A stretch of DNA of 64,000 nucleotides from an uncultured Pelagibacteraceae bacterium (GCA_902532225.1 CACAHI010000002.1:569-64568); one strand, 5' to 3'. Counted from the first letter of the stretch, positions 8,770 to 53,646 are shown. Notes: generated from the letters alone by a model not told the origin. Numbers and translations: made by a program.

Positions 8770-10551
8770 TTAAATATGATTTTTTTGAGATTTCATATCC
8801 TCTTTTTTTATACCTGCTACTTTTACAGGTTTTTTCATTGCATCTCTTCTAAAAGGTTCTCCAAGTTCTTGATTTAATATTACCTCAATGAATGTTGTAA
8901 TTCCTTTATTTTGATCTTCGCATGACTGCTTAATTGCTTTTGTCGTTTCTTCCATTGTTTTTACCGTTACTCCTTTTAAACCACATGCATTAGCAACTTT
9001 TGCATAACTTAGTTCTGGATCAAGTTCAGTTCCTATAAAATTATCATCAAACCAAAGTATCGAATTTCTTTTTTCAGCTCCCCATTGGTAATTTCTAAAA
9101 ATTACCATTGTTATCGCTGGCCATTCTTTTCTTGCACATGAGCTCATTTCATTCATACTGATGCCGAATGCTCCGTCTCCAGCAAAACCTATAACTGGTG
9201 TTTTTGGACAACCAATCTTAGCTCCTAAAATTGATGGAAACCCATAACCACATGGACCAAATAAACCTGGTGCTAAATATTTTCTTCCTTTTTCAAAAGT
9301 TGGATAAGCATTTCCAATAGCACAATTATTTCCTATGTCACTTGATATGATCGCATCATCAGGCATTGCAGTTTGAATTGCTCTCCAAGCTTGACGTGGT
9401 GACATTCTATCTTTATCTCTTTCTCTAGCTTCTTTATTCCATACTGTGCCCGGGTCATCATCTTCATGATCTAGGCCACTTAACGTTTGTAGCCATGCTG
9501 ATTTAGTTTGATGAATTAAATTTTTTCTATCTTCTCTTCCATTGTTTCCAGCTTTTTCAGATAATTTTGATAATAATTGTTGAGATACCATTTTTGCATC
9601 TCCGCATATACCAACTGTCACTTTTTTAGTTAAGCCTATCCTATCTGGATTCATATCTACTTGAATAATAGAAGCTTCCTTGGGCCAATAGTCAATTCCA
9701 TAACCTGGAAGAGTTGAAAAAGGATTAAGTCTAGTTCCTAAAGCAAGAATAACATCTGCTTTTGAAATTAACTGCATAGCAGCTTTTGATCCGTTATAAC
9801 CTAATGGTCCAACAGCTAAAGGGTGGCTTCCCGGAAAACTATCATTATGTTGATAACCACTACAAACAGGAGCATCTATCTTTTCAGCAATCTTTTTACA
9901 ATCTTCAATCGCATCTCCTATTACAACTCCCGCTCCAGATAGTATTACTGGAAATTTCGCATCAGACAATAATTTAGCAGCTCTTTCGATTGCATCTTTT
10001 CCTCCACCTTGTCTTTCAAATCTAACTATTGGAGGTAGTTCAACATCAACAACTTGGGTCCAATAATCCCTAGGAACATTAATTTGTGCTGGAGCTGAAC
10101 CTCTAAAAGCTTTTTCAATAACTCTATTTAATACTTCAGCCATTCTTGAAGGATCTCTAACTTCTTCTTGATAACAAACCATATCTTTAAATAAATTCAT
10201 TTGTTCAACTTCTTGAAAACCACCTTGTCCCATAGTTTTATTCGCAGCTTGTGGAGTGACCAACAATAAAGGTGTGTGATTCCAATAAGCAGTTTTAATC
10301 GGTGTTACAAGTCCAGTTATGCCTGGACCATTTTGAGCAATGACCATTGACATTTTTCCTGTAGCCCTTGTGTAACCATCTGCTATTAATCCGCCATTTG
10401 TTTCATGAGCAACATCCCAAAATGTAATTCCTGCTTTAGGAAATAAATCTGATATTGGCATAAATGCTGAACCAATAATTCCAAAAGCATGTTCTATTCC
10501 ATGCATTTGAAGAACCTTGATAAAAGCTTCTTCTGTGGTCATTTTAGTCAT
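8770..10551 (-). CDS. xsc: Sulfoacetaldehyde acetyltransferase
   Basis: MTTEEAFIKVLQMHGIEHAFGIIGSA N-terminus, GDGAFG TPP motif, NYQWGAEKRN, ELGEPFRRDAM. Confidence 0.95.
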   Translation of the reverse strand: MTKMTTEEAFIKVLQMHGIEHAFGIIGSAFMPISDLFPKAGITFWDVAHETNGGLIADGYTRATGKMSMVIAQNGPGITGLVTPIKTAYWNHTPLLLVTPQAANKTMGQGGFQEVEQMNLFKDMVCYQEEVRDPSRMAEVLNRVIEKAFRGSAPAQINVPRDYWTQVVDVELPPIVRFERQGGGKDAIERAAKLLSDAKFPVILSGAGVVIGDAIEDCKKIAEKIDAPVCSGYQHNDSFPGSHPLAVGPLGYNGSKAAMQLISKADVILALGTRLNPFSTLPGYGIDYWPKEASIIQVDMNPDRIGLTKKVTVGICGDAKMVSQQLLSKLSEKAGNNGREDRKNLIHQTKSAWLQTLSGLDHEDDDPGTVWNKEARERDKDRMSPRQAWRAIQTAMPDDAIISSDIGNNCAIGNAYPTFEKGRKYLAPGLFGPCGYGFPSILGAKIGCPKTPVIGFAGDGAFGISMNEMSSCARKEWPAITMVIFRNYQWGAEKRNSILWFDDNFIGTELDPELSYAKVANACGLKGVTVKTMEETTKAIKQSCEDQNKGITTFIEVILNQELGEPFRRDAMKKPVKVAGIKKEDMKSQKNHI

Positions 10552-10641: not shown

Positions 10642-10929
10642 ATGGTAAGTACAGATATTATAATACATGATGAAAAAGACAACGTAGGAGTTGTTGTTAT
10701 TGAAAAAATAACTCAAAATCAGGATTGTAATTGTTGGATTATGGAAAATGATAAATCAGTAAAAATCCAGTCCAAAAATGATATCCAACTAGGTCATAAA
10801 ATTGCAATGGTTGATCTAAATGAAGGTGACACAATATTAAAATATGGTCATGATATTGGTAAAGTAGTAAAATCAATTAAAAAAGGTGAGCATGTACATG
10901 TTCATAATGTAAAAACAAAGAAATGGTAA
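10642..10929 (+). CDS. suyA: Sulfolactate sulfo-lyase alpha subunit (SAF domain, UxaA N-terminal-like)
   Basis: DNVGV, GHKIA, KYG and GEHVHVHN motifs; divergent from xsc and adjacent to the beta subunit. Confidence 0.8.
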
Positions 10930-10930
10930 A

Positions 10931-12097
10931 ATGGAAATTCCGAAAAGTTTTTTAGGTTATAAAAGAGAAAATGGTAGAGCTGGTACAAGAAACCATGTGA
11001 TAATTTTACCTGTCGATGATATTTCAAATGCATGTGCTGAAGCAGTTGCGAATAATATTAAAGGCACAATTGCATTACCTCATTCTTATGGAAGATTGCA
11101 ATTTGGAGCAGATTTAGAGTTACATTTTAGAACTATGATTGGCACGGGAAAAAATCCTAATGTGGCAGCTGTTATAGTAATTGGAATTGAACCAAAATGG
11201 ACAAAAAGAATTGTAGATGCAATTGCAAAAACTGGAAAACCGGTTGAAGGATTTAGCATTGAAGGTGTAGGAGATATTGACACAATAGCAAAAGTTTCAA
11301 AAAAAGCCCAAGAGTTTTCAATGTGGGCTTCAGAAAAACAAAGAGAAGAATGCCCAATTAGTGATTTGTGGATTTCAGTAAAATGTGGCGAGTCGGACAC
11401 AACTTCAGGACTTGCGTCGAACCCAACTGTTGGAAATCTAATGGATAAACTTGAACCACTCGGTGTTCATTTATGTTTTGGAGAAACATCAGAACTTACA
11501 GGTGCGGAAACAGTATGTGCTAAGAGAGGAAAAACCCCTGAAGCTAAAGAAAAATTTATGAAAACTTGGAATGCATATAATGATTTTATTTTAAAAGAAG
11601 CGACAGATGATCTTTCCGAAAGCCAACCAACAGCTGGGAATATTGCTGGTGGATTAACTACTATTGAAGAAAAAGCATTTGGAAATTTTCAAAAAATTGG
11701 ATCAAGACAATTTATTGACGTTTTAGAACCAGCTGAAGAACCAACAAAAGGTAAAGGTTTATATTTTATGGACACCTCATCAGCTGCTGCTGAATGCGTA
11801 ACATTACAAGCTGCTGGCGGATTTAATATTCATTTATTCCCAACAGGCCAAGGAAATATTATTGGAAATCCAATCGAGCCTGTAATTAAACTTACTGCTA
11901 ACCCACTTACTGTTAAGACAATGAGTGAACATATTGATGTTGATGTATCTAAAATTCTATCTCGTCAAATGAATTTAGATCAAGCTGGAGATGAATTAAT
12001 CAAAGCAACTTTAAGAGTTGCAAACGGTAGATTAACATGTGCTGAAGCTTTAGGTCATAAAGAGTTCGTTATGACGAAATTATACAGAAGTGCTTGA
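10931..12097 (+). CDS. suyB: Sulfolactate sulfo-lyase beta subunit (UxaA family)
   Basis: [25 protein letters not shown] and [14 protein letters not shown] motifs; sulfonate gene context. Confidence 0.85.
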
Positions 12098-12111: not shown

Positions 12112-13197
12112 TTATTTTTTAATTACTTGAATATTTTTTCTTAAATCAGAAATAATTTTTCTAACTATTGCAGCACCTACTCCAAGTATAAGTGCCAACG
12201 AAATAGAAAAAATACCATAAAGAATTGGAGCATTAATTGAAATGTTTTTAATAAATTTTGCAAATGGGCTTAATAATTTACTTCCATTGCTTTCACTTAT
12301 TACTTTAACTGATTTTTCTGCAAAGAAAGCATCATAGGCTATTGCAATACCAACTAATAATAATAAGACTGCCAAAATAGTTTTAAATTCAGAGCTATCA
12401 ACTTTTTCACCTAGCTTTTGTCCTATTTGAACACCTAAAATAGAACCTAAGATTAATATCATAACAAGCATAAGATCAATCGATCCATAATTAAAAGCAT
12501 GGAGGACCGTAACGATTGCACTAACAAAAATTGTTACAAATAATGAGGTTCCAGGAACTAATTTTGTAGGCATTCCAATTATGTAAATCATAGCAGGTAC
12601 TAAAATAAATGCTCCCCCAACACCCATGATTGCGGCGATGAATCCAACAACAAGTCCAATTATAATTGGAGTAAAAGCACTTTCGTATAACTTAGATTTT
12701 TTAAATCTCATTCTAAATGGCAAGCCATGTATCCAATAATGTGAGTGAAGCTTTTTTCTTATAACAACTTTTTTTCTAGCTCTATCAATCTCACTAACAC
12801 CTTGAACAAGCATAATTGTTCCAATTATTGCTAAAATATACATGTAGGATAAGGAAATAACGATATTAATTTTTCCTATATCTTTAAAATAAGAAAATGT
12901 AATAATTCCTAAAATTGTTCCTGCGGCACCGCCAACAACAATCATTAAGCCCATTTTATAATCTAAGGTTCCTTTTAAATAGTGTGTTGTTGATCCTGAT
13001 ATGGATGTTCCTAAAATATTATTTGCTTCATTAGGTACTGCATATGCGGGAGGTATACCTAAGAAAATTAAAAAAGGTGTCATTAAAAAACCACCACCTA
13101 CACCAAATAAACCTGAAAGAATTCCAACTACTAAACTTAAAATAAATATTAACGGAAGGTTTACATAAACTTCTGCTATTGGAAGAAAATACTCCAT
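12112..13197 (-). CDS. TauE/SafE-family sulfite exporter
   Basis: Duplicated GxxSGLFGVGGGF / GFIAAIMGVGGAF motifs; multiple TM helices. Confidence 0.85.
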   Translation of the reverse strand: MEYFLPIAEVYVNLPLIFILSLVVGILSGLFGVGGGFLMTPFLIFLGIPPAYAVPNEANNILGTSISGSTTHYLKGTLDYKMGLMIVVGGAAGTILGIITFSYFKDIGKINIVISLSYMYILAIIGTIMLVQGVSEIDRARKKVVIRKKLHSHYWIHGLPFRMRFKKSKLYESAFTPIIIGLVVGFIAAIMGVGGAFILVPAMIYIIGMPTKLVPGTSLFVTIFVSAIVTVLHAFNYGSIDLMLVMILILGSILGVQIGQKLGEKVDSSEFKTILAVLLLLVGIAIAYDAFFAEKSVKVISESNGSKLLSPFAKFIKNISINAPILYGIFSISLALILGVGAAIVRKIISDLRKNIQVIKK

Positions 13198-13440: not shown

Positions 13441-13791
13441 TTAAAAAATTGTTGCTCCAAAAACTTTAATCTGATCACCCTCATCACCTAGTACAAGTCG
13501 ACCTAAAAATTCCCCAGGTATCTTGGTGCTAGTCTGTTTATATAGTATCGTGACATACAAACCTCTTCTAATGCAGCCAAACGCCTTACAGCCTTCTGAC
13601 AATGTCGATATAAGTTCATTGTTAGCCCATTGCTTGCCGAGCTCGACTTCATTAGCTCCATAAAGCATCTGTGATGAGAGGTCTTTAGTAAAACTACCAT
13701 AGTCTTTTATATTTGATGATCTTACTAAATTAGCCCAAATTGGTTCAGCAACTTTGAATATTTCTTCGTCAGACTTATCGATAATGCTCAT
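13441..13791 (-). CDS. Hypothetical protein downstream of aprA
   Basis: 116-aa ORF with ATG start 17 nt after the aprA stop; no recognised family. Confidence 0.7.
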   Translation of the reverse strand: MSIIDKSDEEIFKVAEPIWANLVRSSNIKDYGSFTKDLSSQMLYGANEVELGKQWANNELISTLSEGCKAFGCIRRGLYVTILYKQTSTKIPGEFLGRLVLGDEGDQIKVFGATIF

Positions 13792-24177: not shown

Positions 24178-24342
24178 ATGTTTGTGGAGTATGAACCGGG
24201 GGATAAAGTAATAAATCCATCTAAAAAAGATTGGGGAATTGGCCAAGTTCAATCTATCATAAAGTACAAAGTAACAGTAAATTTTGAAAATGTTGGTAAA
24301 AAAGTGATCGACATAAGAAACTTAGAATTAGAAAAGATATAA
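24178..24342 (+). CDS. DUF3553-like small protein (54 aa; not in ORF track)
   Basis: [54 protein letters not shown]; WGIGQVQS...VTVNFEN signature; stop overlaps the cysQ start. Confidence 0.85.
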
Positions 24343-25118
24343 TGGAAAAGAAATATAGCATAGCATTAGTAGACGAATTAATTAATGTTTTCAAAAAAGC
24401 CGGTCAATTAAGTATTGAACTACGTAATAAAGGTTTAATAAAAAAAACTAAGTCAGATGATACTCCGGTAACTAATGGTGATATTGAAGTTAACAATATA
24501 TTGGTAAATGAAATAAAAAGACTTACACCTAAATATCCTATTGTATCTGAGGAAACATTAGAAAATAAGTTTGAAAAAAATTTAAAAAATTTTTGGTTAA
24601 TTGATCCAATTGATGGAACTTACGATTATATAAACAACAAAGATGAATTTACATTAAATGCAGCACTTATTGTTGATAAGTCACCATTTTTAGGAATAGT
24701 TTATGCACCAAGTAAAAAAAGATTATTTTATACTTATGGCGATAAAAAAAGTTTTGAAATTAACGATAAAGGTCTAGTTGAATTAAAATGCCAAAAAATT
24801 ACAAAAAAAGATGAAGTGGTTGCATTAACTTATTCTAATAATATTAAGTCTGAAATATTAGAAATTCACAAAAAAAATGAGGTAACAAGTTTTGTAAAAA
24901 TGAAAAGTTCATTAAAGTTTTGTGTAATTGCCGCTGGTGAATTTGACTTGTATGTTGCAGAACCAAGAGCCTGTGAATGGGATATTGCTGCAGGTCATGC
25001 AATTCTTAAAAATGCAGGTGGAATTATTACTGACTTTGAAGGTAATGAAATATTATATGGTAAAAAAGATTTTATAAATCCAAGTATAGTTTTAAAAAGA
25101 TCTCACAATTTAAAATGA
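24342..25118 (+). CDS. cysQ: 3'(2'),5'-bisphosphate nucleotidase
   Basis: PVTNGD, SEE, WLIDPIDGT, SSLKFC and EWDIAAGHA motifs. Confidence 0.9.
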   Translation: MEKKYSIALVDELINVFKKAGQLSIELRNKGLIKKTKSDDTPVTNGDIEVNNILVNEIKRLTPKYPIVSEETLENKFEKNLKNFWLIDPIDGTYDYINNKDEFTLNAALIVDKSPFLGIVYAPSKKRLFYTYGDKKSFEINDKGLVELKCQKITKKDEVVALTYSNNIKSEILEIHKKNEVTSFVKMKSSLKFCVIAAGEFDLYVAEPRACEWDIAAGHAILKNAGGIITDFEGNEILYGKKDFINPSIVLKRSHNLK

Positions 25119-49675: not shown

Positions 49676-50527
49676 TCAATCTGCTAGGCCATCTGATCTA
49701 GCAACATTTCTCTCTAAATGAATTGGTAACACTTTGCCATATATAGCCTTAGAATGTTCAGGGGTATTTACTCTCCAAGGATCTAAAACATAAGCTGGAA
49801 TACACATGTATCTCGATTTTTGACCCTCTATTTTTGTTACTCTATGTAAAGTAAATCTTCCTTTAAATATTTGTAGATCACCTGGTTCTAATTTTAATTG
49901 TTTAACTCTTGCTCTGTCACCATTTAAAACTTTTTTAACTTCATCAAAATTTTCATTTCCAGGTTCTCGAATATTTGGACAATATTCAAATACTCCACCT
50001 TTCTCTGGTTTTTGAATCATTAAGCTTAAAGTAAATTCGCAACTATCAAAATGCCAAGGAAGAATTCCTTCTGGTTCCATAACATTATATGCATGGCAAG
50101 CCAACGGATCTGCCCATCTATAAATTGGAGAAACTCCTAAACACGCAGATACAAATTTTAAAAGTTCATCTGTTTCATAAAGATATTTCATTTCAGAATT
50201 TTTTGGAAAACAATCTGAATTTAAATATCCATTATATCTATTCATAAAAGTTCTTTTTGGATGATCTTTTGGTAACTTTGGATTATCTTCAGCATATAAA
50301 TAGGGATTTATACTTTCTTTGGACATATAAACCTCATCTAGTTGTTTCTCTAATTCTGAATTCATTATTTCTAGTGATTTTGGTAAAATAAAATTAGGAA
50401 TAGTTGAACAGCTAAATTGATCTAGTTCTTCTTTGCACCTTTTAATTAAACTTTTAATTATTGGAGAGTTTAAGTCGTAAATTGGATACTTTTCTAAATC
50501 TACTATCGACTTAAGTCTTTCGTTCAC
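49676..50527 (-). CDS. 2-oxoglutarate/Fe(II)-dependent oxygenase (BesD/HalD-like fold, hydroxylase-type motif)
   Basis: WHFD (H-x-D), GGVFEY and PGDLQIFKGRFTLHRVT motifs. Confidence 0.75.
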   Translation of the reverse strand: MNERLKSIVDLEKYPIYDLNSPIIKSLIKRCKEELDQFSCSTIPNFILPKSLEIMNSELEKQLDEVYMSKESINPYLYAEDNPKLPKDHPKRTFMNRYNGYLNSDCFPKNSEMKYLYETDELLKFVSACLGVSPIYRWADPLACHAYNVMEPEGILPWHFDSCEFTLSLMIQKPEKGGVFEYCPNIREPGNENFDEVKKVLNGDRARVKQLKLEPGDLQIFKGRFTLHRVTKIEGQKSRYMCIPAYVLDPWRVNTPEHSKAIYGKVLPIHLERNVARSDGLAD

Positions 50528-50898
50528 TTCAATTCTCCATCCTCTCGCATTTTAGCTCTAATTTTTGTAGCTGAAATTTTTTGTATTTCTTCAGGCATAA
50601 CTATTTCTTCTATTTTGTAACCTACACCTCTTCCATAACAAATATTAGTTATATTTGGCACTAGAATAATTTTAAATCTACCTTCGTATTTAGGATTTAA
50701 TCTTTCTTCTATATTTTTTTTAACTGTTTCAAAATCAAAAGGATTATCATCAACACCTTGTACATCCCTTATTTGAATACAAACTTGTCCTGTTTTCTTA
50801 ATTATTTCTTCAAATAAAGCATAATGACCATCATGAAATGGTTGCCATCTACCTAGCATTTGTGCAGTTGGTTTTTTGTTATCCCATTTGTAGCTCAT
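50524..50898 (-). CDS. Small HxGH nucleotidyltransferase (cytidylyltransferase-like)
   Basis: GRWQPFHDGH and ISATKIR motifs. Confidence 0.85.
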   Translation of the reverse strand: MSYKWDNKKPTAQMLGRWQPFHDGHYALFEEIIKKTGQVCIQIRDVQGVDDNPFDFETVKKNIEERLNPKYEGRFKIILVPNITNICYGRGVGYKIEEIVMPEEIQKISATKIRAKMREDGELK

Positions 50899-50930
50899 AA
50901 GAATTTTAGTTTATTCCTATTAAAAAAAAA

Positions 50931-53216
50931 TTAAAAGACTTTATTTAGGTTTATACTAGCTTCTTTACTATCACCTAAATTAGTTAAATCATCGTTTAAA
51001 TCAAAACTTAAATCATAACCATTAATATTTTTCTTTATTTCAAATTTTGATATTAAATTCTCAGATCCATTTATTGAAAATGCATATTCTGTATCTTCGT
51101 GAGGTAAATATCCTAAAGCTATATATAAGTTGTCAGTATATCCAGTGCCAAAAGCATGGTTTCTCTCATAAATAATAAAGACACTGTAGTGTTCGGGAAA
51201 AATTATATCTATACCAATTTCACCGTTAAGATTATGTAACGCTCCAGTGTGCAATGTATCATTAAACTTAACACTACCATCCCCAACATAGGTATATTTA
51301 AAGTTTGATGAACGATCTAACTCAGCAACATACTCCAATTTACCATGGCGTTTTAAGGTATATTTTTCGTTTGATAAATCCTCAACCAATGCCATTGCTG
51401 CTCTTAAATTTTTCGTTCTTACATGTTGGTCTTCAACTTCAATAGCTCCTGTGCCTGCTTCTTTATATCCGTGTAATATTGTATGCCCAAAATCGAATTG
51501 TCCAGAAGGTATAAGAGTTAATTTATCCCTTTTATACTCGTCCTTAATTTTTAAAGTGCCATATATTTGATTGCCTGTCCTATCTGCAGTTAATCTTTTA
51601 CCGTCATCATTATTGAGTATATCAGATCTTATTTTTCCTATTCCAAAGATCTTGTCTAAATATTTTGTGTCATCATTAATAGGAGATGTACTATAATACG
51701 TAATATTATATGTATTAGAATTTAAATTGCTTCCAGTACTACCAACATCAACATCATCGTTACCAAATCTAAAAGCAAATCCTTCAAGGCCATAATCATC
51801 TGTAAATCTATCAAGACCAAAGGTTAAAGAATTTGTATGAACTTCTTTTGTCGATGCAATACTAGTATCACCCACTCTTCCAAGAGAAATACTTCCTTCG
51901 CTCCAATAAAAATAGTTTTTGTTTGAATCATTTTTATTTTTAGAGGTTGATATTTTTTTAAAAGATGAAATTGGTACTGCTTTTAAAGATGAAAGCATAC
52001 TGTTTGAAAAATTTAATTTTACATTTTGATTAGATAAATTTTGTTTATCTTTATTTCTTCTAATCCACTTCAATCTATTTAAAGCTGAGTTTGTTGAGAA
52101 ATTAATTGTTCTTTTTGCTAATTCTACTTGAGCTTCTGCCATTCCTATTCTATCACCTTCTGATATCGAAGGACATTTTCCTGAAATAATATTAAAAGGA
52201 CAAACTAAATCGAATTCAACGACCTCGTCTCCTCCGTTTACTGTTCTATCACTACCTATATACATTTTAAAACCATTTTGACTAAATCCAATACCTCTTT
52301 GTTGTGCTAGATTACCGTTTCCACCAAAATTTACTAATCTAACTTCACCATCAATAGTGAAAGAAGATGTTGAATACGCAACGTCAAGGGAAATTTGAAC
52401 AACATCTGAAGTAGAATTTATATGTTCAACACACCAAAGTTTTTTTCCATCTTTACTAAATCTAATTCCCATAGGATTATTGCACTCGTCTTCTAATTCC
52501 ATACCTGCATTAGTTACAAGCGACATTGTGCTTAAACTATAAGGAGTTGAAAGCTCATACTCTAATAATCTTGTATTTCTTACATCTGAGCCATTATTTC
52601 CTTGGCCGTGATAAATAATAAATATTTTAGTTCCGTCATCATTAATCTCCACGCCTTGTGGACGATTTTTTCCCGCAGCTCCAAGCATTACCCCAGCATT
52701 ACTTCCGTCTTGTAAATTTGGAGAATCAGTAGAACCAATATTGGTATTTTGCTCTACATATTCACATGTTGAGAGATCATAAGACTTAGTTACTTTATAA
52801 TGATATATTACATTTGTATTGACACTATTTTGACTGGATACAAAAAAAAATTTCATACCATCACTGCTAAATTCAAGGTCATAAACACCTTGTTCAGTAC
52901 TGTCCGCATGAAAGCCATTATTCAATGTACATCTTTGGTCATCGCCTGCATAAACTTTTGTTGAAACATCAAAAGGGACAGTTAAATTATAAGTGTTTAT
53001 ATGTGATTGCTCGCCATCATTTAAATTACTATCTCTGTAAATTATGAACATTTTATCTCCTGCAGGATTAAAATGAATACCTTGAATATGTCCTAGTGGA
53101 CTACCCGCATCCTCTGTTACAAATGCTTGTTGTACATAAGTAACCATAGCTCCAAATGAATTAGAGATTGGAAATAAAAATAATAAAACTAAGATAATTT
53201 TTTTTAAAAAGTTCAT
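50931..53216 (-). CDS. Autotransporter with repeat-containing passenger domain
   Basis: Signal peptide; five F-xx-D-G-x-K repeats; C-terminal amphipathic beta-strand region (WSEGSISLG..., terminal Phe). Confidence 0.75.
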   Translation of the reverse strand: MNFLKKIILVLLFLFPISNSFGAMVTYVQQAFVTEDAGSPLGHIQGIHFNPAGDKMFIIYRDSNLNDGEQSHINTYNLTVPFDVSTKVYAGDDQRCTLNNGFHADSTEQGVYDLEFSSDGMKFFFVSSQNSVNTNVIYHYKVTKSYDLSTCEYVEQNTNIGSTDSPNLQDGSNAGVMLGAAGKNRPQGVEINDDGTKIFIIYHGQGNNGSDVRNTRLLEYELSTPYSLSTMSLVTNAGMELEDECNNPMGIRFSKDGKKLWCVEHINSTSDVVQISLDVAYSTSSFTIDGEVRLVNFGGNGNLAQQRGIGFSQNGFKMYIGSDRTVNGGDEVVEFDLVCPFNIISGKCPSISEGDRIGMAEAQVELAKRTINFSTNSALNRLKWIRRNKDKQNLSNQNVKLNFSNSMLSSLKAVPISSFKKISTSKNKNDSNKNYFYWSEGSISLGRVGDTSIASTKEVHTNSLTFGLDRFTDDYGLEGFAFRFGNDDVDVGSTGSNLNSNTYNITYYSTSPINDDTKYLDKIFGIGKIRSDILNNDDGKRLTADRTGNQIYGTLKIKDEYKRDKLTLIPSGQFDFGHTILHGYKEAGTGAIEVEDQHVRTKNLRAAMALVEDLSNEKYTLKRHGKLEYVAELDRSSNFKYTYVGDGSVKFNDTLHTGALHNLNGEIGIDIIFPEHYSVFIIYERNHAFGTGYTDNLYIALGYLPHEDTEYAFSINGSENLISKFEIKKNINGYDLSFDLNDDLTNLGDSKEASINLNKVF

Positions 53217-53235
53217 AAAAAAAAGATTTGATATC

Positions 53236-53646
53236 TTATTTTTTTAGATCTTTATATATTTTAGGTGCCCAAGTTTGTGCATCTTGAGATGTGACATGAA
53301 AGTCATATTTTTCAGGCTTTACGAACATTTGATTTGTGTCGTCAAATCTACCTTTTTGGATGGTATCTACCCAAACAACATAGTCTGCTGGAAATAATTT
53401 TCTCGCTTCAGGTGTTGGGCATATAAAGTCAGCTATTACATTGTTGCCTTCATTTTTAATTTTTAGCGCAGCCTCTGCCATTCTTTTTGATTGTCTTGTT
53501 CTACCTTCTTCTGAAAAATCCCAATCGTTTGCAGCTTTTCTAATTTCATCTGCATTTAATCTTTTTGCTTTTATTAATTTTGCTAGCTCATTTGCTAGAG
53601 TTGTTTTACCAGCCCCGGGCAGTCCCATAATTAAAATTATTTTCAT
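53236..53646 (-). CDS. Short adenylylsulfate kinase (CysC)-like P-loop protein
   Basis: GLPGAGKTT, LNADEIR, DFSEEGRTRQ and ADFICP motifs echo CysC; only 136 aa. Confidence 0.75.
   Translation of the reverse strand: MKIILIMGLPGAGKTTLANELAKLIKAKRLNADEIRKAANDWDFSEEGRTRQSKRMAEAALKIKNEGNNVIADFICPTPEARKLFPADYVVWVDTIQKGRFDDTNQMFVKPEKYDFHVTSQDAQTWAPKIYKDLKK

Follow-up and report, generated by a model that had tools for sequence, protein, structure and literature searches.

A NadM-related nucleotidyltransferase paired with an APS-kinase-like protein in SAR11 bacteria, phages and haloarchaea: a candidate non-canonical ATP sulfurylase

Gene Arrangement of the Locus

The analysed stretch of DNA (hereafter the window), 64,000 nucleotides long, originates from an uncultured Pelagibacteraceae bacterium (GCA_902532225.1 CACAHI010000002.1:569-64568) and carries on its minus strand two small open reading frames (ORFs) which are the subject of this work. 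The first, designated K (53236-53646; 136 amino acids, aa), codes for a predicted P-loop kinase similar to adenosine 5'-phosphosulfate (APS) kinases, with the P-loop GLPGAGKT and a shortened lid; the second, N (50524-50898; 124 aa), codes for an HxGH nucleotidyltransferase of apparent NadM descent. It appears quite probable that N is a non-canonical ATP sulfurylase, likely converting APS to ATP and sulfate, and that K likely diverts APS to 3'-phosphoadenosine 5'-phosphosulfate (PAPS); we infer the activities, their direction and the fluxes from the comparative data presented below.

Between K and N lies, on the same strand, a single 761-aa autotransporter-like gene (50931-53216; beta-domain PF03797, E-value (E) 4e-18), flanked by gaps of 19 bp and 32 bp. 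The run is tightly packed: the stop codon of an upstream peptidase gene overlaps the start of K, and the stop codon of N overlaps by 4 bp the start of a gene for a HalD-like Fe/2-oxoglutarate (2OG) enzyme (49676-50527, minus strand; PF23169 above the cut-off). An earlier note, made from the sequence alone, had described an APS-kinase-like ORF devoid of the usual RDPKGLY motif and a nucleotidyltransferase ORF with the motifs GRWQPFHDGH and ISATKIR, co-oriented and separated by one autotransporter, and all of this was confirmed. The autotransporter passenger is repeat-rich, with a weak WD40-like match, and has a 31%-identical paralogue on contig C3.

The same note had placed aprMBA and cysQ in the window. 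[quoted passage not shown] The cysQ assignment stands less firmly, since this inositol-monophosphatase-family gene (24342-25118, plus strand) scored 201.5 bits with TIGR01331, just below the cut-off of 228.8, and is referred to here as CysQ-like. These genes lie 25-37 kb away from the K/N pair, and their co-location in one window is, taken alone, weak evidence. The window is low in G+C (about 30%), and neither Sat nor CysD was found in the SAR11 genome to which it belongs (G000, 68.6% complete). A 116-aa ORF of no Pfam family (orf116; 13441-13791, minus strand) follows aprA in the window, as well as in every other aprMBA locus mapped, being a candidate fourth member of the apr operon in SAR11.

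The APS-Kinase-Like Protein K

K exceeded the cut-off of PF01583 (45.4 bits against 21.1), but not that of the TIGR00455 equivalog (37.9 bits against 138.7). Fold comparison was performed with a model of the natural K-N fusion P0126 (built on 69 sequences; mean predicted local distance difference test score, pLDDT, 93.1), whose K part is 79% identical to K of the window. The five best fold matches of its kinase half were APS kinases (Z 18.0, 17.2, 16.6, 16.4 and 15.6), with CysC of Mycobacterium tuberculosis giving Z 18.0 and a root mean square deviation (rmsd) of 1.8 over 125 residues; APS kinases were also ranked at the top by Foldseek.

Residue conservation was assessed in 44 diverse K sequences (<65% identity, selected from a random 330 of 513), aligned via 13 canonical CysC domains. 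In M. tuberculosis CysC, APS is bound by D480, R483, F492, R497 and the backbone of I523-S524, according to PMC4373884. The K counterparts of R483, F492 and R497 (R36, F44 and R49) were present in 100% of the sequences and that of D480 (D33) in 93%, while the proline of the FISP motif (P77) was retained in 98%; by this alignment, the phosphosulfate- and adenine-binding set of APS kinases is retained in K. The P-loop is intact, G8, G13 and K14 being invariant. In place of the canonical lid motif K carries GRFxDTNxxFxxP, in which D103, T104, F108 and P111 are conserved in 89-98%; other departures include Gln for the Asn following R49, Cys or Ala for the Ser of FISP and an Asp preceding FISP. Both cysC and aprA are listed for five of seven SAR11 strains in Table 3 of PMC5069961, and this published cysC annotation presumably refers to K.

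The Nucleotidyltransferase N

N just missed the cut-off of PF01467 (20.8 against 21) and scored far under those of NadM (28 bits against 127 with NF002243; 23.8 against 181.2 with TIGR01527), while PF01747 and TIGR00339 gave no match to it at E 0.1. In the fold comparison that the earlier note had proposed, the N half of the P0126 model matched phosphopantetheine adenylyltransferase (PPAT) and nicotinamide mononucleotide (NMN) adenylyltransferase (Z 10.3), and no ATP sulfurylase chain covered the N range among the 50 fold-match rows of this model, lists which the kinase domain had filled. A search of the ESM Atlas returned only "cytidyltransferase" clusters. A single-sequence model of N (pLDDT 54.8) was discarded, its fold matches all being unrelated (Z at most 5.1).

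Alignment of 95 N sequences (<70% identity, from 595 domains) revealed G16, R17, Q19, H22, H25, S109, T111 and R114, including the HxGH and SxTxxR residues, as 96-100% conserved, and N therefore looks catalytic. The family has gained R44 (93%) and a loop G89-R90-x-V92-G93, mostly GRDVG (G89 100%; R90 99%; position 91 D 54%, G 22% or K 12%; G93 100%). The loop recalls the GRD loop behind the fourth core strand of Sat, a likening that rests on sequence position and not on superposition, and N of the window itself has GRG there. Two phage NadM proteins have a Trp-bearing helix after strand 3 which is missing from N, where PN runs straight into the YGR strand; the local alignment of N with these proteins stops at residue 82 of N. 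We take this helix to have a role in nicotinamide stacking, which a literature search did not confirm. By sequence criteria, N is derived from NadM and not from Sat, and its organic-substrate pocket may have been converted into a pocket for a small anion. The closest relatives of N among named genome records were Pelagibacteraceae. In one single-contig genome retaining K and aprB (G068:C1:283928-284301) N is split into two pieces in different frames, owing to either a frameshift or a sequencing error.

K and N as a Conserved Pair

Adjacency and fusions of the two domains were searched for, as suggested by the earlier note. PHROG family 10255 (230 positions) spans both proteins: its positions 1-111 correspond to K (E 1.9e-33) and its positions 126-228 to N (E 1.1e-23); since one family matches both halves, the pairing is not due to chance. 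Among the best 80 genome loci around N (from a scan of 5 of the 64 parts of the collection), K was located within 300 bp of N in 66, farther away in four, and was absent from ten. The autotransporter separates the two genes in just three of these 80 loci, and in G036 two copies stand in tandem between them; it was rejected as a part of the module and is a real but incidental, lineage-specific insertion. The HalD-like oxygenase, Rieske and ech genes were also rejected as partners, as they vary in SAR11 and are absent from the mapped apr-linked, phage and archaeal loci; the HalD-like gene is a neighbour of N in some of the SAR11 loci and not in others. A DUF2061 protein of 77 aa recurs in the vicinity of the pair at 16 phage loci, at one of which (L047:2019-2249) its gene separates K from N.

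N was found behind K in 114 of the best 120 K homologues longer than 238 aa, and such a K-N fusion also occurs in cultured phages (Sano, Salvo, Bacata and DLP_6); overall, the two domains lie side by side or within one protein in bacteria, phages and archaea alike. Moreover, N is fused to full CysC domains, being located ahead of CysC in P0357 and behind it in P0343 (representatives at 50% identity). All six N/CysC fusions tested, comprising both domain orders, passed the cut-off of apsK TIGR00455, and the best 120 matches to P0357 covered 92-100% of its length. Fusions of this kind appeared at three separate places in the N tree, which comprises 106 rows (two haloarchaeal sequences entered twice) and has weak deep nodes with a short alignment. 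At one more locus (L072:9561-11204, G014) a second, divergent N has a TauE gene and a CysC-like kinase of 183 aa as neighbours, within a sugar-nucleotide island.

Association of N with aprMBA

At five loci (L408, L409, L203, L205 and L206) N occurs without K directly upstream of aprM-aprB-aprA-orf116-tauE and on the same strand; in the four of them that were measured, the gaps are 49-74 bp and the identity to N of the window is 72-78%. The K query found no K in genomes G145, G118 and G122, and PF01583 had no match in G145 and G118. In Allochromatium vinosum sat is located directly upstream in the co-transcribed sat-aprMBA operon (PMC3779200), and it is this position of sat that the apr-upstream N occupies. 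N of the window clades with the aprM-upstream copies in the tree (local support 0.95). In nine of nine N-positive genomes of a second family, N and aprB are on opposite strands and about 2.2-2.6 kb apart, and in the maps of G037, G040, G046 and G048 K-N meets the aprMBA-orf116 operon head-on.

The phylogenetic profile against aprB and Sat, also envisaged in the earlier note, was built from 109 Pelagibacterales genomes at least 90% complete (111, minus the genome of the window and the unpublished G115), with N, aprB, Sat, CysD, K and PF13469 (at E 1e-20) as queries. N and aprB were both present in 86 genomes and both absent from 14, with N alone in five and aprB alone in four; all nine discordant genomes are drafts of 20-30 contigs. 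The four aprB-only genomes also lack ech, the usual neighbour of N, and the Rieske neighbour is missing from three as well; the N region may therefore be unassembled there or lost as a block. Sat and CysD were both rare: Sat was detected in four genomes and CysD in three. The three with CysD are all devoid of N and aprB, and in one of them (G038) cysD-cysNC takes the place which aprMBA-N-K has in G052 and G059, the genes on either side being shared (mostly 69-91% identity between G038 and G052).

K was found in 83 genomes and never without N, so that the lack of co-occurrence which the earlier note had named beforehand as grounds against its proposal was not encountered. Of the eight genomes with N and no K (six K-negative genomes in the profile were deduced from per-genus tallies), seven retain aprB and none has a PF13469 sulfotransferase, which is present in 42 of the 83 K-positive genomes. 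Thus, the occurrence of N parallels that of AprBA, and the occurrence of K that of sulfotransferases, a pattern to be expected of a Sat substitute (N) and of a PAPS branch (K).

Sulfotransferases, cysQ and Mobile Elements

The PF13469/PF00685 sulfotransferase was the most frequent neighbour cluster in a range of 3.5 kb around K or N at the phage and metagenome loci (52 of 167). Counted per N locus, it was present in 57 of 159 (within 1.5 kb in 42), and in 8 of 27 clusters after clustering of N at 80% identity. Among 79 related phage loci fetched with the 2OG oxygenase as a control, six contained K and, directly upstream of it, a sulfotransferase, and the other 73 contained neither, an association whose statistical support is overstated, the control having been seeded from a K-N locus and its phages being closely related. 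A peptide-deformylase control (10 loci seeded from a K locus) was uninformative, K being present in four of nine and a sulfotransferase in none.

Ten of the 11 plasmid matches were haloarchaeal, and all nine annotated haloarchaeal plasmid loci have, in this order, a sulfotransferase, a CysC-N fusion and YqcI/YcgG, a cassette that probably spread once. The haloarchaeal cassette (L427-L430, L434-L438) often includes in addition a small ORF of about 50-120 aa, and has the appearance of a complete pathway in itself, leading to a sulfated peptide or small molecule. The gene order cysQ-K-N was observed in four alphaproteobacterial loci, with cysQ directly upstream and above the cut-off (L224). Outside SAR11 the N family was found in 6 of about 397 other Alphaproteobacteria genomes, while about 5,900 stretches of viral contigs were estimated to match its search patterns.

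Two phage loci deserve separate description. In Xylella phage Sano (gp33-gp35, L021:5963-7732) a NADAR gene stands ahead of the fusion, as does the gene of a protein that matches Sulfotransfer_4 weakly and below the cut-off (E 4e-4). In Ralstonia phage phiRSL1 (ORF238-230, L024:6995-14354) a K-domain protein heads a cluster comprising a TET-associated glycosyltransferase, a Sulfotransfer_2 protein, a member of the thymidylate-synthase family and a 5-hydroxymethyldeoxyuridine (5-hmdU) kinase domain, a combination suggestive of a DNA base modification that is sulfated; no match to N at E 1e-5 was obtained with the C-terminal half of ORF238.

Predicted Pathway

The tie between N and APS is drawn from the sat position, the aprB/Sat/CysD profile, the fusions with canonical CysC and the sulfotransferase neighbours. 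In the pathway proposed for SAR11, sulfite would be liberated from organosulfonates by Xsc (8770-10551, minus strand; TIGR03457, 965.6 bits, above the cut-off), encoded near aprMBA, and by a SuyAB-like pair (10642-12097, plus strand), named from its GD_AH domains (Pfam) and context; a TauE-family exporter gene (Pfam) is located at 12112-13197 (minus strand). AprMBA would couple sulfite to AMP, giving APS and passing electrons to the membrane, and N would catalyse APS + pyrophosphate (PPi) <-> ATP + sulfate in place of the missing Sat, ATP being thereby regained. Part of the APS would be tapped by K (APS + ATP -> PAPS + ADP) for sulfotransferases, with CysQ returning the 3'-phosphoadenosine 5'-phosphate (PAP) to AMP. 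In phages and on haloarchaeal plasmids the same enzymes would run forward (sulfate + ATP -> APS -> PAPS), feeding the adjacent sulfotransferase.

Taken together, N and K would make up a split, minimal PAPS synthase. The earlier proposal of a stripped-down PAPS synthase/ATP sulfurylase holds as far as the link to APS is concerned, now supported by position, profile, fusions and neighbours, and has to be amended as to origin: N comes from NadM and is not a stripped-down Sat, and its activity would therefore be convergent with that of Sat. Somewhat less firmly, we favour the broader view that N represents a third, independently evolved family of ATP sulfurylases of 110-135 residues on the NadM scaffold, which would complete sulfite oxidation in most SAR11 with a gain of ATP at substrate level and, joined to a trimmed or a canonical APS kinase, would constitute the smallest PAPS synthases of phages and haloarchaeal plasmids. 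Assimilatory sulfate reduction would not be restored by it, since no cysH, cysI or cysJ was reported in the SAR11 strains examined in PMC5069961.

Contrary Evidence and Alternative Explanations

A number of observations weigh against this assignment. As regards N, the 11 best solved-structure matches of its profile were all NMN adenylyltransferases (E 3e-13 to 8e-9), and hhalign gave a probability of 98.8 with the two phage NadM proteins (residues 11-82) but of 5, i.e., no profile similarity, with two SAR11 Sat sequences; moreover, in 95 sequences N carries G-R-[WYF]-Q-P-x-H-x-G-H and not the QxRNxxHxxH motif of Sat, whose QxRN part binds sulfate (motif as defined in PMC3779200). As regards K, gluconate kinase follows at Z 15.2, less than one unit under the fifth APS kinase; the lid is short by about a dozen residues, RDxKGLY (including RDPKGLY) is absent, no equivalent of Lys562 is conserved in the lid of the 44 sequences, and LDGD has mostly become LNAD, with Asn for Asp478 at position 31 in 84%. 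Because M. tuberculosis CysC cannot work without closing its lid (PMC4373884), the APS-kinase activity of the short-lidded K is likely but not assured.

The genomic context is not uniform either. In the window, the K/N run consists of tightly packed catabolic genes of the betaine/carnitine type, at a distance of 34 kb from aprM, and the search of its 68.6% complete genome yielded no PF13469 sulfotransferase. Sat was present in four of the 109 genomes, every one of them N-positive, so N is not strictly exclusive with the known enzymes; among the other N-positive alphaproteobacteria two of five have a CysD match, and four of the 109 genomes contain a sulfotransferase with neither K nor CysD. The profile counts come from related, non-independent genomes, and their statistical support is thereby overstated. 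Of the 159 phage and metagenome N loci, 102 have no sulfotransferase in the flank; scanning 107 of 130 additional neighbours revealed no further one, only 3 of 21 metagenome N/CysC-fusion loci have an adjacent sulfotransferase, and N was seen in only two of the six phage loci with K and a sulfotransferase.

The least improbable alternative is that N acts on APS without PPi and thereby returns the nucleotide to AprBA, either by hydrolysis (APS -> AMP + sulfate) or by phosphorolysis (APS + phosphate -> ADP + sulfate), while K is still an APS kinase fed by AprBA or a host enzyme. It would explain the sat position and the aprB profile equally well and is consistent with the absence of QxRN from N; some phages, furthermore, possess a sulfotransferase and K with no N (L359), and PAPS supply there is independent of N. 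An APS-destroying enzyme fused to CysC in nine of nine haloarchaeal sulfotransferase cassettes would, however, remove the substrate of the kinase. In the nucleotidyltransferase superfamily HxGH and SxTxxR, so highly conserved in N, bind the beta and gamma phosphates of ATP or PPi, and the known APS:phosphate adenylyltransferases have another fold. On balance, we regard this alternative as unlikely.

Kinase/HxGH fusions with organic substrates are known, namely NadR and CoA synthase, and K-N could be a pair of this kind acting on nicotinamide riboside/NMN or another nucleotide cofactor, with no role in sulfate metabolism. The nearest families and structures of N, NadM NMN adenylyltransferases and PPAT, agree with it, and so does the fact that in phages Sano and Bacata the K-N fusion directly follows a NADAR gene. 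On the other hand, N lacks the Trp-bearing helix of the two phage NadM proteins, and no nicotinamide phosphoribosyltransferase was present among 198 neighbour proteins scanned, whereas this gene follows both true NadM phage genes fetched. The sat position, the aprB profile, the replacement by cysD-cysNC, the CysC fusion and the cysQ and sulfotransferase neighbours would all be left unexplained. A role of N in NAD salvage is unlikely, and the organic-substrate explanation as a whole, which the earlier note had considered equally possible, appears much less likely than stated there and indeed very improbable.

Slightly less probable still is that another small anion X, such as sulfite, thiosulfate, sulfamate or a small sulfonate, is activated to adenylyl-X and then 3'-phosphorylated, yielding a non-PAPS donor for the sulfotransferase-fold proteins. 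The active sites of both K and N do depart from the canonical ones, N having an arginine set of its own, and many of the neighbours are of sulfotransferase fold by profile only; N, however, also partners unmodified CysC domains which pass the equivalog cut-off and sits in the operon of an APS-forming reductase. Finally, that K is a weak or dead APS-binding module regulating or channelling for N as the sole enzyme, comparable with the regulatory APS-kinase-like domain of fungal-type sulfurylases (chains of which appear among the Foldseek matches of P0126) and in line with the loss of most of the lid together with its Lys, whose closure is indispensable in M. tuberculosis CysC, is the least probable of all, given the intact P-loop, the new conserved lid motif replacing the old one and the phages which keep K beside a sulfotransferase without N.

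Significance and Comparison with Known Systems

Assignment of N as an ATP sulfurylase bears on the fate of APS and on the source of PAPS for sulfotransferases, which occur in 49 of the 109 genomes, and the candidate is present in 86 of the 90 aprB-positive ones. According to PMC5069961, "Candidatus Pelagibacter ubique" possesses AprBA and has no sat or cysDN, AprBA serving maybe only for sulfite detoxification, while sat was reported for only one of seven SAR11 strains in PMC3448164. If the assignment is true, N supplies the step reported missing in the very abundant SAR11 bacteria, ATP being recovered from organosulfur-derived sulfite, and metabolic models scoring SAR11 as lacking this step need revising; the orphan viral "cysC" auxiliary genes of marine and freshwater phages gain their missing partner, and a PAPS synthase of 250-300 residues would be useful for in vitro sulfation. 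The search of the open-access literature (listings and abstract openings) yielded no description of the N family, the accessible part of PMC2211403 contained nothing on a SAR11 sulfurylase, and two supplements of PMC5069961 had no expression entry for the K/N genes. The reaction and the two-domain plan are already known; it is the N family for the first step that is undescribed in the open-access literature reached.

With Sat (PF01747; A. vinosum Sat, PMC3779200) N shares the HxxH superfamily, the position directly upstream of aprM in its close relatives and the predicted reaction, and it may share a GRD-like loop; it differs in having 124 aa against 344 in SAR11 Sat, in lacking QxRN, a PF01747 match and any profile similarity, and in its NadM ancestry. 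The sporadic SAR11 Sat (L413:7914-8948, L414:7204-8238) is itself short, 344 aa, both genomes also carry N, and the L413 protein scores below the NCBIfam cut-offs. With NadM (Methanocaldococcus jannaschii MJ0541, 1f9a; NadM-Nudix, 2qjt/2qjo; phage bifunctional NadM) N shares GRxQPxHxGH, NPF, SxTxxR and the HUP fold (profile match at E 3e-13; fold match at Z 10.3 with an rmsd of 2.6 over 111 residues), but it is about 45 residues shorter than MJ0541, lacks the Trp-bearing helix, falls under the family cut-offs, has Arg44 instead of Gly-Ser after strand 2 and occurs in a sulfur and not an NAD context.

K, in turn, resembles CysC (PF01583, TIGR00455; M. tuberculosis 4bzp/4rfv; Aeropyrum pernix 2yvu) in fold, P-loop, D33/R36/F44/R49 and F-x-C-P, and is distinguished by its length of 136 aa, the cut lid, the replaced RDxKGLY and LNAD in most cases for LDGD. 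PHROG 10255 ("kinase"; Xylella phages Sano, Salvo and Bacata and Stenotrophomonas phage DLP_6) represents the same family, K-N fused, with proteins of 243-246 aa that are 41-49% identical; their annotation does not go beyond kinase or adenylylsulfate kinase, and their N half has no assigned function. Like the PAPS synthases, i.e., human PAPSS1 (1x6v) with the kinase first and the Aquifex Sat-APS kinase (2gks) with the sulfurylase first, the K-N family combines an HxxH transferase with APS kinase in both orders; unlike these enzymes of 530-630 aa, it comprises 245-310 aa, its transferase is not Sat, and in most SAR11 it is encoded by two genes.

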